Shown here in pieces: positions 1 to 64,000 of a stretch of DNA of 64,000 nt; position 1 is the stretch's first letter; each line of letters opens with the position of its first letter. A program made the translations under genes and the position numbers. The DNA is taken from the NCBI GenBank assembly GCA_964345075.1, contig CAYFPS010000005.1, positions 96,103 to 160,102 on the forward strand. The letters are read 5' to 3'. The notes below the pieces were generated by a model, which saw only the letters and a list, made by a program, of their open reading frames with translations, was not told the DNA's origin and made no database searches. This DNA comes from an uncultured Bacteroidaceae bacterium. Its GTDB lineage: Bacteria > CAIWAD01.

Positions 1-629
1 GCCTGCACGGGCAGCACGGGTCTGCCGTCACGCCAACTCAAGCCTGTATCACCCAGATGCCCCTTGCCGCGCCACTCCGCCTCGATGCGAGAGAGCTCCT
101 TTGCCAGACGGCGTTCTTCCTGCTCGACTCTTTTGCGAAGTGTTCCAAGCTGGGCTGAGGCTGTATCACGAAGTTGTCCATCTTCGCCGATGCGCTTGCG
201 CACCGCATCAATTTCAGTCTGAAAGGCTCCAAGATCCTGAGCGAGCTGTCCAAGCCCGGGATAATCAGCGTGTGACAAGGCCTCGCGCAAGCTGTCACAC
301 AGCTCCAGCACAGCGACAAGATCCAGACACTGGCTACCTTCGAGGAAATCGGTTTTTTCAAGCAGGATCGGCATGACATGCTGGCCGTCCTCCAGCGCGG
401 AAAGACCCGGGCTTCCGGCGCGATCGAGCAGGACCATCCATTCGCTCAGCCTGCCCCGCTCTTCTTTCCATGCCCGGCGGCTTTCAGGTGCCTCGGCCAT
501 GAGTAGCGAGTTGCGCGCGGCTATGGTAAGTGCACCTTCAGCGATCCAGGCCAGAAGCCGGTCAACCTCAAGCGCCTGACGAGTGTCTGTATCACAATGA
601 AAGGACCAGGCGGTCTGCTGGCGACTCAT
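1..629 (-). CDS. mutS2: Endonuclease MutS2 (Smr-type), N-terminal part; the gene runs off the left edge of the window
   Basis: I translated the minus strand from the ATG at 629. The product reads MSRQQTAWSF...RIGEDGQLRDTASAQLGTLRKRVEQEERRLAKEL...RDGRPVLPVQA, which matches the conserved MutS2 N-terminal segments (..DSASxELxxIRxxL.., ..RYVLPVK..). The six-frame track omits it because the ORF has no in-window stop. Confidence 0.6.
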   Translation of the reverse strand, partial: MSRQQTAWSFHCDTDTRQALEVDRLLAWIAEGALTIAARNSLLMAEAPESRRAWKEERGRLSEWMVLLDRAGSPGLSALEDGQHVMPILLEKTDFLEGSQCLDLVAVLELCDSLREALSHADYPGLGQLAQDLGAFQTEIDAVRKRIGEDGQLRDTASAQLGTLRKRVEQEERRLAKELSRIEAEWRGKGHLGDTGLSWRDGRPVLPVQ

Positions 630-1108
630 AGGCGGAACTGCCTGAAATGGTGATGCAAATGGCGGTCCTGCAGCTTGGCCCATTGCAGGCGATCAAGCAT
701 ACCGAAGGCCGGGTGAGCATGCTTGGCCAGCGGGTTTCCCAGCACTTCGCGGTGAACGCGGCGCAATAATGCTGCCAGCTCTGCCTTCAATTCAGCAAAG
801 GACCTGCCTGAAAGCGCGATCAGTTCAGGCGTCGTGGGCAGACCCGGTGGAATGGGCAGTGGTAGCATGGCCAGCGGCCTTATAAGTCGGCCAAGCCAGC
901 GGGGACCATACTGGCCGCCGGACTCTTCACCAATCGAGCAAGCGAGACTATGAATCAGGTGCTCGAGCATGGCTGCTGCCGACATGCGTCCCCAGCGCGG
1001 GCTGGCGTGCTCCTCAAGCGCTTCCAGTCGCTGTAGATAGATGTCCACACGTGAACTGTCGATCAGACTCATTGCCCTGCCTCGTTGGTGAAGCTGAAAA
1101 GATAGCAA
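626..1108 (-). CDS. DinB/YfiT-like putative metal-dependent protein (DUF1569-like)
   Basis: 160 aa with His-rich helix-bundle motifs (HLIHSL, HREV, HLHHHF). Its stop overlaps the mutS2 start (ATGA). Confidence 0.4.
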   Translation of the reverse strand: MLSFQLHQRGRAMSLIDSSRVDIYLQRLEALEEHASPRWGRMSAAAMLEHLIHSLACSIGEESGGQYGPRWLGRLIRPLAMLPLPIPPGLPTTPELIALSGRSFAELKAELAALLRRVHREVLGNPLAKHAHPAFGMLDRLQWAKLQDRHLHHHFRQFRL

Positions 1109-1135
1109 AGCGATCAGCCCTGCTCAGGTGAGCCT

Positions 1136-61971: not shown

Positions 61972-62001
61972 TATAAATCGTAGGCAACTCAGGAGGCGGT
62001 C

Positions 62002-64000
62002 ATGTGGCATACTTGGAACCAGGGTGCTCTCATGGTCGCATCCTTTTTGCTTACCTCGGCTGTGTTGGCAGACACTTATCACGTTCCTGGCGATTTCAGC
62101 CTGATTCAGGAGGCAATTCTTGCTGCTTCGGCGGATGGTGATACGATTTTGGTAGAGCCCGGACGTTATGTGGAAAACCTTGATTTCCTGGGGAAGGACA
62201 TTGTCCTGACTTCGCAATACCAGCTTGGCGGAGATGAGAGTATCATACACGAAACCATTCTGGATGGAGGACAGAATGGGTCCGTTGTGACCTTCGTCAA
62301 TGGTGAAAGCCGGGCCGCATTGCTGAACGGCTTTACAGTGACCAATGGTAGTGGAAGGGATAGAGACTTTCTCGGGACAATGGGTGGGGGGATCTACATT
62401 CAGTCGTCAGATCCAAGCGTAACCAACTGCTTGATAACCAGTAACACTTGCTCGAGCGCACTTGCTGGCGGTGGCGGCATCTATGTTGGTGGAGCTACAC
62501 CATACTTTGCAGGATTAGTCATCAGGGAGAATAGTTCGGCGAATCTGGGTGGCGGTTTATCCCTAGGTACAGCAAGCCCTGAACTTGACGCCTTGAACAG
62601 GTGCAGCATATACGCAAACAATGCATCGGCATACAACGATGTATATCAGTATGTTGCCGGCAATGATCCAGTGTTCTTTTATTTAGATAGCGCAACAGTT
62701 GATCATGTGGATCCCTACTTCCTAGGTGGAAGCGTCTCTTTGGAAGCCGACATTCTGCACGGTAAGTTAAGCCCAATTGCCAACAACCTGTGGGTATCGC
62801 CATTTGGCGATGATGAAAATGGAGGTCTGTCTGAGTTCGAGCCACTGAAGACCATTGCTCATGCCCTGGCCATCATCAATGCGGACTCCTTGCATCACCG
62901 GACCATACACCTGTTGCCGGGTACTTACAGCCCCTCCGATGGCCAGCTCTTTCCACTTAACCTCAGGTCCTACGTCACCCTTGAGGGAGCAGGACCGGAT
63001 TCCACAATTCTGGATATGGAGTTCACAGCCGTTCGCGTCTTTGGGGCCATTGACATGAAAGTGGATTGTTCGGTGAAGTCGCTTACCGTAAAACGTCTTG
63101 CTCGTGGTATTCCTGAGGTAGCATTTCACCTAATGCAGTGCACAGATTTACAGTTAAATGATCTTAGATTTACGGAAAACGACGCGTCCTTCCTTATTGC
63201 TTCCAGTATTTATGGCTGGATGAGCTTAATTCCCGGGACAAGCATTGTCGTTAAGGATTGCGTGTTTGACAGCAATAATTCTGTAAAGGCCTTGGGTTTA
63301 TCCTCGCATCAATACATGACTGTAGAAGGATGCACTTTTGACATGTGTACACCGCTAGATGGTATTCCGCCAGATGACATCCAGATAGGTGTAGCGTCAG
63401 GAATGAGTATGTCTGCCTACCTAGGATATGAGACTACTATTGAATACAAGCACAGGGTTAAAAACTGCGTTTTCACGCGCAATGTCTCCACTAACACTGG
63501 TGGGGCACGCTTTTCGCCTGGACTCAACCTCAGAAACTATAACGATCATCCGATTGATGTGGTGAACTGCACCTTTGCGGACAATTCCTCCCCCTATACC
63601 GGAGGACTCTGGCTTTCTCCCTGGAGTACTTCAGGCATGCAGGCACGAATCGCCAACTGCCTGTTTTGGGGCAATGAACCCTATCAGATTTGGATAGATG
63701 GAGATTACGCTCCCCCCGCACCGCCCATTCAAGTGCTGTTTTCGCATTGCCTGATTCAGGATGCAGAGGAAGGCGTATATGATTTTGGCAACACCGAAAC
63801 GCTGTTCCCTGAGGGCATCATCGATGCCGATCCGATTTTTTTGGGCGAAGGAGAAGCACCATATCGGCTTACTTCGGATTCGCCCGCCATTGATGCCGGG
63901 ACGGCATTCTGGGTCGTTGAAGGGGATACTGTTGTAAACCTGTCACAAGAAGATTTCGCGGGTAGTGCACCTGACATCGGCGCTTACGAATGGATCCCAA
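62002..64000 (+). CDS. Secreted parallel beta-helix repeat protein (Pmp/pectate-lyase-like); runs off the right edge of the window
   Basis: AGGAGG RBS and a signal peptide. Repeated GGG(I/L)Y..., NxxxGN and right-handed beta-helix rungs. Confidence 0.55.
   Translation, partial: MWHTWNQGALMVASFLLTSAVLADTYHVPGDFSLIQEAILAASADGDTILVEPGRYVENLDFLGKDIVLTSQYQLGGDESIIHETILDGGQNGSVVTFVNGESRAALLNGFTVTNGSGRDRDFLGTMGGGIYIQSSDPSVTNCLITSNTCSSALAGGGGIYVGGATPYFAGLVIRENSSANLGGGLSLGTASPELDALNRCSIYANNASAYNDVYQYVAGNDPVFFYLDSATVDHVDPYFLGGSVSLEADILHGKLSPIANNLWVSPFGDDENGGLSEFEPLKTIAHALAIINADSLHHRTIHLLPGTYSPSDGQLFPLNLRSYVTLEGAGPDSTILDMEFTAVRVFGAIDMKVDCSVKSLTVKRLARGIPEVAFHLMQCTDLQLNDLRFTENDASFLIASSIYGWMSLIPGTSIVVKDCVFDSNNSVKALGLSSHQYMTVEGCTFDMCTPLDGIPPDDIQIGVASGMSMSAYLGYETTIEYKHRVKNCVFTRNVSTNTGGARFSPGLNLRNYNDHPIDVVNCTFADNSSPYTGGLWLSPWSTSGMQARIANCLFWGNEPYQIWIDGDYAPPAPPIQVLFSHCLIQDAEEGVYDFGNTETLFPEGIIDADPIFLGEGEAPYRLTSDSPAIDAGTAFWVVEGDTVVNLSQEDFAGSAPDIGAYEWIP

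Follow-up and report, generated by a model that had tools for sequence, protein, structure and literature searches.

Why should a single asymmetric octamer recur about once per kilobase along a bacterial chromosome, and why should some blocks of the same DNA lack it? The question is raised by a stretch of 64,000 nucleotides from an uncultured bacterium deposited under Bacteroidaceae (assembly GCA_964345075.1, contig CAYFPS010000005.1, positions 96,103 to 160,102), here called the window, in which the word GTGATACA, read on the opposite strand as TGTATCAC, is present in 51 exact copies. An earlier note, made from the letters of the window, had regarded the octamer as a candidate uptake signal of the kind known as DNA uptake sequences (DUS) in Neisseriaceae and uptake signal sequences (USS) in Pasteurellaceae, and the blocks devoid of it as foreign. 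The reading that we favor, at a probability of roughly 40%, is that the word, written together with its preceding base as YGTGATACA, would be a genome-wide word for self-recognition, of the same kind as DUS and USS, and would accumulate by molecular drive in DNA import or recombination. The genome-wide part of this claim is drawn from about 200 kb sampled from two lineages, the relatives having been read as stretches of about 20 kb around two marker genes.

Abundance and sharpness of the octamer

The 51 copies are divided between the strands as 28 on the plus and 23 on the minus strand. Dinucleotide-preserving shuffles of the window gave 0.56 ± 0.78 copies, with a maximum of 4, so the octamer is enriched about 90-fold over chance, at a density of about one per kb. 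The hyperabundance reported earlier therefore stands, and the count of 47 given with it does not, as copies at 4676, 11238, 12424, and 43878 had been missed; the positions listed at that time are mostly right, three of them being slightly off (16128 for 16118, 38425 for 38426, and 53047 for 53017).

The word is sharply delimited. The hexamer GATACA is found 56 times in the window, and 51 of these occurrences sit within the octamer. One-mismatch variants do occur, as the earlier note had said, each of the 24 possible ones being present 0 to 8 times, and variants at octamer positions 1 and 2 are absent, compared with about 7.5 expected. This scarcity of partial words indicates that the full octamer is what counts. 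A search for an extended flanking consensus, which the same note had proposed, revealed a preference at position −1 (C25, T18, G8, A0) and about zero information at all other flanking positions, which shows that the octamer is not part of a longer repeat element. A repetitive extragenic palindromic (REP) element, a miniature inverted-repeat transposable element, and a gene-family repeat were ruled out by these flanks, uninformative beyond position −1, and by the intragenic location of all copies except one. Scans of the window with Rfam, for tRNAs, and for tandem repeats gave nothing relevant to the octamer.

Fifty of the 51 copies lie within about 30 unrelated genes, on coding and template strands alike. 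The word differs from its own reverse complement, i.e., it is non-palindromic, and it was read in antisense frame 3 (19 copies), sense frame 2 (16), antisense frame 2 (7), sense frame 1 (5), and antisense frame 1 (3), with one copy being intergenic. All five stop-free frames are used, also in the relative OY760505 described below, while the sixth (G-TGA-TAC-A, with its TGA stop) is never used. This tally bears out the several frames and the D-T, V-I-Q, and V-S-Q contexts noticed before, and no confinement to one gene family or frame was found. When synonymous codons were shuffled within genes, a procedure that preserves the proteins and a codon pool already inflated by the octamers, 3.4 ± 1.8 copies were expected, compared with 49 observed in ordinary genes. 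The abundance of the octamer is thus real and resides in the nucleotide sequence, as the earlier note had already described it.

The copies are spaced apart: none of the 86 gaps between neighboring copies is shorter than 100 bp, where about 10 would be expected (P ~2e-5). The window has a uniformly negative GC skew, and its genes lie mostly on the minus strand, both pointing to a single replichore; the claim of about equal strands, with no skew of the kind shown by Chi or by the FtsK-orienting polar sequences (KOPS), agrees with the 28/23 split. The OY760505 region has 19 copies on the plus and 36 on the minus strand, and the pooled ratio of 59:47 is not significant.

Distribution of the octamer among relatives

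Exact look-up found no identical record for the MutS protein encoded in the window. A relative with a 97% identical MutS is present in JGI metagenomes, about 20 relatives follow at 62 to 78%, and the next tier, at about 53% identity, carries the labels KSB1, Calditrichota, or Zhuqueibacterota. The MutS relatives are uncultured metagenome-assembled genomes (MAGs) of the FCB (Fibrobacteres-Chlorobi-Bacteroidetes) group, labelled Delongbacteria, Cloacimonetes, or KSB1, and one of them, at 68% identity, lies on a closed 3.72-Mb chromosome (OY760505.1, "MAG: Candidatus Delongbacteria bacterium"). By these relatives, the source of the window is an uncultured bacterium of the FCB group. The octamer is the top 8-mer in the loci of the 97% strain (L001-4, 1.0-1.2 per kb), in OY760505 (L006, 1.28 per kb; L091, a locus that was chosen through a pattern scan for the word, 1.9 per kb), and in L126, which belongs to a second member of the OY760505 clade (1.15 per kb). 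At position −1, A is found in 0 of 51 copies in the window and in 2 of 55 in OY760505, and this preference, shared by both lineages, points to one recognition specificity.

Other relatives, represented by L005/L158, L127, L128, L129, and L159, contain few or no octamers. The gradient is best seen in the occupancy of sites at which the encoded peptide is compatible with the word. The exact octamer is present at 49 of 60 such sites in ordinary genes of the window (82%), at 76% in L001, 71% in L006 (25 of 35), and 62% in L126, and at all 10 sites in the flanks of L156; the values are 20-27% in L005, L158, and L128, and 0-8% in L127, L129, and L159. The octamer-poor L005 and L158 together hold 5 copies in 27 kb, and L128 holds 4 in 22.6 kb, where base composition predicts about 0.3-0.4; one octamer in mutS of L005 shares its position with the window. 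Copies of this sort could be relics, products of a weak drive, or imports from octamer-rich relatives. In a neighbor-joining tree of MutS, i.e., of a single gene and with short internal branches, the two octamer-rich clades are not sisters. The graded distribution in the family is compatible with ancestral presence followed by decay and with spread of the underlying machinery, and these data cannot decide between the two.

No alternative word, or "dialect", was found in the octamer-poor relatives. A candidate in L005, CCAGGATC, lies among codon-usage words of like frequency, and the one striking candidate, CACCAGGG/ACACCAGGGC in L159, proved to be an 11-bp tandem array flanking a Y1 transposase gene. 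These L159 arrays (CACCAGGGC[A/G][A/G], at 17112-17331 and 18150-18259) flank an IS200-type Y1 transposase gene (17495-18133) at the spot that is occupied in the window by the toxin-antitoxin cassettes, and may represent a system resembling REP sequences with their associated tyrosine transposases. In L129, a 10-mer, GGAGCCACCC, is present 15 times in 17 kb.

Genome contigs were also scanned for three octamers in the same orientation at gaps of 132-162 nt, a pattern for which tandem repeats inflate chance matches. At least 118 stretches were found, almost all of them CRISPR arrays or tandem repeats, and among the matches listed the sole dispersed one was L091 of OY760505.1. A scan of metagenome contigs for a triple of mixed orientation returned 26 matches, all of them in low-complexity or satellite-like AT-rich DNA and none from this lineage.

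The positions of the copies turn over between lineages, while their number per gene tends to be kept. Among 19 pairs of orthologous genes, 28 copies were counted in the window and 26 in OY760505, and 3 of the 51 positions are shared; at all 48 non-shared sites the other lineage encodes a different peptide. The copies per gene are 4/4 in MutS, 3/3 in UvrD, 5/5 in a cargo protein of the type IX secretion system (T9SS), and 1/0 in the five-gene operon described below (window/OY760505), and the length-corrected per-gene densities are correlated (0.77, P = 1e-4; 0.59 without the operon, P = 0.017). In a strain whose DNA is 87% identical, 8 of the 11 copies remain unchanged, compared with 36% of all 8-mers (P ~0.014, binomial), and the three lost copies are one-base differences.

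Imprint on coding sequence

The octamer requires rare A/T-ending codons (ATA, GTA, TCA, ACA, GAT, TAT, and TGT) and can be accommodated in the peptides [RGCS]DT, VI[QH], CIT, [LMV]YH, and VS[RQHP]. Compared with a composition-shuffled expectation, such peptides are 3.2-fold enriched in the window and 2.6-fold in OY760505, the corresponding values being about 1-fold in the exempt operon and 1.0-1.8-fold in octamer-poor relatives. Accessible sites are occupied to 84% in the window when V-S-L contexts are set aside, and of the 11 compatible sites left empty in ordinary genes, 5 have a copy within 135 bp. Real uptake sequences are known to raise the frequency of the peptides that they encode roughly 2-fold, to be placed at poorly conserved amino acids, and to be absent from genes without homologs in relatives (PMC2817400). 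The imprint left by DUS and USS on proteomes is found here in all its parts, namely, use of the usable frames, enrichment of the encoded peptides, and placement at variable residues.

Octamer-free blocks: an exempt core operon and accessory DNA

Outside the octamer-rich blocks, whose densities (cf. Table 1) are close to the 1.2 per kb claimed before for the housekeeping regions, there are no copies at all in 20801-37351 and 55664-64000, exactly as had been described. At the rate of about 1.3 copies per kb found in ordinary genes, the 13.8 kb of the five-gene operon (24026-37837) should hold about 18 copies and has 1, and the last 8.3 kb should hold about 11 and has none. The proposal that these blocks are foreign agrees with our data for the toxin-antitoxin cassettes (21.2-24.0 kb) and the GC-poor end of the window (59.4-64 kb) and fails for the operon between them.

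The operon encodes a 1407-aa TonB-dependent receptor with an N-terminal CarboxypepD_reg domain, a beta-helix/Big_9 protein, a 1068-aa protein, a PorV/PorQ-family protein, and a 925-aa protein; neither the 1068-aa nor the 925-aa protein has a Pfam or NCBIfam match. Counterparts were found in L156 (3854-16969) and in L157, L158, and L159. The order sigma-54 activator, PilZ, five genes, yceG, uvrD, and TPR protein is identical in OY760505, L157, L158, and L159, and synteny of the operon extends to all relatives examined. The identities of the 1068-aa protein (97, 79, ~70, 61, 59, and 57%) mirror those of MutS and come from the same contigs. In OY760505, the orthologous 13.1 kb is likewise free of octamers and its flanks have the usual density. 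Synteny, identities that mirror MutS, and the lack of octamers in OY760505 too make this an exempt core operon and not an import, and by these sequence comparisons it is vertically inherited.

The proteins of the operon are no more conserved than their neighbors (47-66% vs. 23-68%). Compatible peptides are available in the operon, 13 in the window and 6 in OY760505, and one is used. We also considered codon usage. In core genes with the octamer codons masked, octamer density falls with codon bias and with the G+C content of third codon positions (GC3; rho = 0.57 and −0.67, respectively; 0.42 and −0.59 without the operon), and codon bias in the window is strongest in the operon (effective number of codons, Nc, 36-38 vs. 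a median of 46; GC3 0.74-0.76). Its codon bias in OY760505 is ordinary (Nc 44-49 vs. a median of 47.8). Codon bias alone as an explanation of the exemption thus holds in the window lineage but fails in OY760505, and the cost of rare codons in strongly expressed genes accounts for the exemption only in part. What is left of it hints at a possible effect of the word in cis that some loci cannot tolerate. MAGs labelled Zixibacteria, Calditrichota, and Electryonea contain homologs of the 1068-aa protein at 40-50% identity. A structure predicted for this protein (pLDDT 70) gave weak matches (TM ~0.2) to the N-terminal beta-supersandwich of GH116/GH94 and to PorU/PorZ, which are too weak for a functional assignment by fold.

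The insertion with the two toxin-antitoxin cassettes is missing at this spot in OY760505 and L158, and L159 has its Y1 transposase there; by this comparison of gene order, the segment at 21.2-24.0 kb is a variable insertion site. The end of the window from 59.4 to 64 kb has about 50% GC and a GC3 of 0.44-0.53 and contains T9SS-cargo and beta-helix genes. A search of 5.8 billion sequences gave 13 homologs of its 759-aa protein, of which the best is 77% identical and none comes from the sister strain or the OY760505 contigs; on this basis we consider this end accessory. In both segments, the accessory DNA has zero octamers and its genes lack orthologs in relatives, so an equal density in acquired DNA, which the earlier note had named as evidence against its proposal, was not found. 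Clusters of a palindromic 11-mer, GTGCCAGACAC, which is repeated there both directly and inverted, bracket the cassettes (21374-21406, 22592-22624, and 23738-23770), one cluster being a perfect 22-bp palindrome, GTGCCAGACACGTGTCTGGCAC. The clusters hold 8 copies (7 exact and 1 with one mismatch), the window in total 9 compared with 1.5 expected, and they resemble REP or cassette boundary repeats.

Features mapped in the window

The copies and blocks are collected in Table 1. Genes of the window include mutS, uvrD, miaB, T9SS cargo genes (Por_Secre_tail), and a PorV/PorQ-family gene. The first octamer-rich block, with mutS, lapAB, miaB, a T9SS cargo gene, nadC, a TPR-protein gene, uvrD, and yceG, is syntenic with L001, L006, L126, and L156. 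The open reading frame listed for mutS (3756-6410, minus strand) begins with an ATG at 6410 and encodes 884 aa. It runs into the SPOR-domain gene upstream of it and exceeds its relatives, which have 869 aa, by 15 codons; translation probably begins downstream of that ATG. Two arrays of a 12-bp tandem repeat (TCCGACTACTGG, about 5 copies each, at 2810-2875 and 2976-3045) lie at and upstream of the 5′ end of a low-molecular-weight phosphatase gene, and the unit is among the top 9- and 10-mers of L001.

Table 1. Octamer copies and octamer-rich or octamer-free blocks of the window.
Feature	Position	Strand	Remarks
Octamer	45..52	-	sense frame 2, G-D-T
Octamer	162..169	-	sense frame 2, R-D-T; conserved in L001
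Octamer	588..595	-	sense frame 2, C-D-T; conserved in L001
Octamer	3673..3680	-	sense frame 2, R-D-T
Octamer in mutS	3988..3995	-	sense frame 1, V-I-Q; position occupied in OY760505, not in L001
Octamer in mutS	4676..4683	+	antisense frame 3, V-S-R; not in earlier list
Octamer in mutS	5072..5079	+	antisense frame 3, V-S-Q
Octamer in mutS	6342..6349	-	sense frame 2, G-D-T; also in L005
Octamer	6687..6694	+	antisense frame 1, C-I-T
Octamer	6844..6851	+	antisense frame 3
Octamer	7180..7187	-	sense frame 2
Octamer, sole intergenic copy (lapA-miaB spacer)	8606..8613	+	conserved in L001
Octamer	11238..11245	+	antisense frame 3; not in earlier list
Octamer	11630..11637	-	sense frame 1
Octamer	12072..12079	+	antisense frame 3
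Octamer	12424..12431	-	sense frame 2; not in earlier list
Octamer	12564..12571	+	antisense frame 3
Octamer	12753..12760	+	antisense frame 3
Octamer	13451..13458	+	antisense frame 3
Octamer	13604..13611	+	antisense frame 3
Octamer	14924..14931	-	sense frame 2
Octamer	15047..15054	-	sense frame 2
Octamer	15912..15919	+	antisense frame 1
Octamer	16118..16125	-	sense frame 2
Octamer	17142..17149	-	sense frame 1
Octamer in uvrD	18121..18128	-	sense frame 2
Octamer in uvrD	18727..18734	-	sense frame 2
Octamer in uvrD	19245..19252	+	antisense frame 3
Octamer in yceG	20482..20489	+	antisense frame 2, V-Y-H
Octamer in yceG	20793..20800	+	antisense frame 3; last before 16.6 kb gap
Octamer, sole copy in five-gene operon	37352..37359	+	5′ part of TonB-dependent receptor gene
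Octamer	38426..38433	+	antisense frame 2
Octamer	38651..38658	+	antisense frame 2
Octamer in Mur ligase gene	42873..42880	-	antisense frame 1
Octamer	43703..43710	-	antisense frame 3
Octamer	43878..43885	+	sense frame 1, V-I-H; not in earlier list
Octamer	44143..44150	-	antisense frame 2
Octamer in dapF	44777..44784	-	antisense frame 3
Octamer in dapF	44878..44885	+	sense frame 2
Octamer	46519..46526	+	antisense frame 3
Octamer in rsgA	48253..48260	-	sense frame 2
Octamer in rsgA	48837..48844	+	antisense frame 3
Octamer	49528..49535	-	sense frame 1
Octamer	49814..49821	+	antisense frame 3
Octamer	52042..52049	+	antisense frame 2
Octamer in C25 peptidase gene	53017..53024	-	sense frame 2
Octamer	53122..53129	+	antisense frame 2
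Octamer	53739..53746	+	antisense frame 3
Octamer	53899..53906	-	sense frame 2
Octamer	54285..54292	+	antisense frame 3
Octamer	55656..55663	+	antisense frame 3; last in window
Octamer-rich core block 1	1..20800		30 copies, 1.44 per kb
Octamer-free insertion, two toxin-antitoxin cassettes	21241..24025		MazE/PIN; RHH/PemK
Five-gene operon	24026..37837	-	1 octamer; 12 of 13 compatible peptide sites unoccupied
Octamer-rich core block 2	37352..55663		21 copies, 1.15 per kb
Octamer-free end	55664..64000		histidine kinase gene 56619-58958, then GC-poor genes from 59439

Discussion

A reading in terms of a DUS/USS-like self-recognition word was chosen because density, peptide enrichment, placement, spacing, and distribution all match published uptake sequences. 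The pattern that the earlier note had recognized, with about one copy per kb, on both strands, enriched in core genes and absent from accessory DNA, is borne out and corresponds to the published signature (PMC2817400). Under this reading, some step of DNA import or recombination would favor fragments that carry the word; by analogy, the favoring step may be a sequence-specific receptor of an uptake machinery. A mutation completing the word would then be over-transmitted through the population, which is what is meant by molecular drive, and the word would accumulate wherever protein function and translation tolerate it, until it reaches a plateau of about one copy per kb, since a further copy less than about 100 bp away would add nothing. 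Constrained enzymes and codon-biased genes would resist it, and newly arrived DNA would not yet have acquired it. The uptake, receptor, and recombination steps are all ones that we infer. No comEC, comEA, dprA, pilQ, or pilin genes were found in the stretches of about 20 kb around the two marker genes, and the approximately 200 kb examined, the window included, contain no competence gene, pilin, methylase, or candidate binding protein.

How close is the word to systems already described? Like the USS of Pasteurellaceae (core AAGTGCGGT), it is present about once per kb, in both orientations and mostly within genes, and like USS it goes with encoded peptides that are doubled or more, with poorly conserved residues, and with absence from genes without homologs (PMC2817400). 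USS have a density of about one per 1000 bp, and uptake does not gain from a second USS within 100 bp (PMC7811141), which the spacing floor seen here matches. It is unlike USS in its sequence, its occurrence in an FCB-group lineage, and its core of 8-9 nt without AT-rich flanking segments. To our knowledge, a core operon exempt from the word has not been described for USS. With the DUS of Neisseriaceae, which are 12-mer dialects read by the ComP receptor, the word shares core enrichment and an expected number of thousands of copies per genome, and its density of 1.2-1.4 per kb falls within the DUS range; DUS are also distributed at the level of a family, with differences between lineages (PMC3630211). 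Unlike those of DUS, its copies form neither close inverted pairs nor terminator-like arrangements, 50 of the 51 being intragenic and no two closer than 100 bp, and there are no sequence dialects, since the relatives share the same word at lower occupancy or do without it. GTGATACA has neither sequence nor family in common with GCCGTCTGAA of Neisseriaceae or AAGTGCGGT of Pasteurellaceae. The word is therefore not a member of the DUS or USS family proper, because sequence, taxon, and receptor, here a candidate only, all differ.

The statement of the earlier note that no such signal is known outside those two families overlooks the cyanobacterial highly iterated palindrome (HIP1, GCGATCGC), which has been linked experimentally to transformation (10.1101/2024.09.10.611283). 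HIP1 is 15-300× over-represented, is conserved above background, and was concluded to be under selection for its chromosomal distribution (PMC5861425). The word resembles it in being an octamer that is strongly over-represented, conserved above background, and variable in abundance among related genomes, with selection or drive apparently working on its distribution and not on single copies, and differs from it in being asymmetric and having no known methylase, HIP1 being palindromic with known cognate methyltransferases. Chi and the KOPS or architecture-imparting sequences are likewise asymmetric octamers enriched in core chromosomal DNA, but they are strongly skewed and far less dense, and no consistent skew is seen here. 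A full-text search of the literature returned no paper linking the word to uptake, over-representation, or repeats, and papers that mention Delongbacteria do not address it. Altogether, it looks like a new, unreported instance of the hyperabundant genomic words represented by DUS, USS, and HIP1.

Several observations weigh against a DUS/USS-like word: (i) the operon is octamer-free in both rich lineages, which a balance of drive and cost does not obviously predict; (ii) the trait is patchy, as the two clades rich in octamers do not group as sisters and the window lineage has a closest sister with an occupancy of 20-27%; (iii) the OY760505 region has a mild strand excess; (iv) with 8-9 nt, the word is shorter than the 10-12 nt of DUS or the extended USS motif; and (v) the link to DNA import is drawn purely by analogy.

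Some of these points sit more easily with a word of the HIP1 type, i.e., the target of a resident DNA-binding or DNA-modifying protein that is selected for a chromosomal function such as architecture, maintenance, or regulation, with selection acting on the distribution of copies and not on individual ones. The lack of the word from a core operon in two lineages would be less puzzling if the word acted locally in cis, the 100-bp spacing floor would fit, and per-gene density is kept between lineages while positions turn over, which is what was concluded for HIP1 (PMC5861425). We nevertheless rate this, the main alternative, as rather unlikely: the word is non-palindromic, unlike HIP1 and most methylase targets, the DNA examined contains no methyltransferase or candidate binding protein, and thousands of amino-acid-changing sites would be hard to keep by selection on each site. 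It also merges partly with the DUS/USS-like reading, as HIP1 is reported to enhance transformation (10.1101/2024.09.10.611283; 10.64898/2026.06.24.733823), and the two may converge. A different possibility is a bias of repair, in which very-short-patch-type repair or biased gene conversion would turn near-cognates into a functionless word. The near-saturation of accessible sites (84%, cf. above) and the absence of position 1-2 variants, as if partial words had been completed, speak for it, but a purely mutational process should neither spare a 13-kb core operon in two lineages nor respect a spacing floor of 100 bp nor correlate with codon bias. The known effects of very-short-patch repair on word frequencies are modest and nowhere near 90-fold, which also counts against this explanation, and we consider it improbable.

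The asymmetry of the octamer, its enrichment in the core, its absence from accessory DNA, and the mild strand excess in OY760505 would also suit a recombination hotspot like Chi, or a "self" marker read by RecBCD or AddAB that tames a nuclease, and a partly Chi-like action has been suggested for HIP1 as well (10.1101/2024.09.10.611283). Against this speaks the unskewed 28/23 split in a window whose GC skew and gene orientation are those of a single replichore, and the pooled ratio of 59:47 is incompatible with the skew of about 75% of Escherichia coli Chi. A density of 1.2-1.4 per kb and an enrichment of about 90-fold are, moreover, far above those of E. coli Chi, found about once in 4.5 kb, and such a role seems very unlikely to us. 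As for a coding artefact, caused by a protein motif, codon bias, a repeated gene family, or a mobile element, the location of 50 of 51 copies in coding sequence is what would be expected of it; it is contradicted by the use of five frames, both strands, and about 30 unrelated genes, by the 3.4 copies expected after synonymous shuffling, and by the need for rare A/T-ending codons, and can practically be dismissed.

Taken as the DUS/USS-like word that we tentatively prefer, YGTGATACA would represent an independent origin of the DUS/USS strategy outside Proteobacteria, with its own word, a putative receptor, an occupancy ranging from 0 to 84% across the family, and an operon kept word-free in a way that suggests a cost or cis effect of the word at that locus. 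Two proteobacterial families are the only ones in which sequence-specific uptake words are known, HIP1 being a recent and still debated third case, and a further independent case, if true, lies in a distant, uncultured lineage. The word separates core from accessory DNA in these MAGs, and the exempt operon shows that "motif-free" is not automatically "foreign". Occupancy near saturation, together with the 0-84% gradient, makes the family a natural comparative system in which the receptor or enzyme could be found by phyletic correlation and in which molecular drive can be told from selection.

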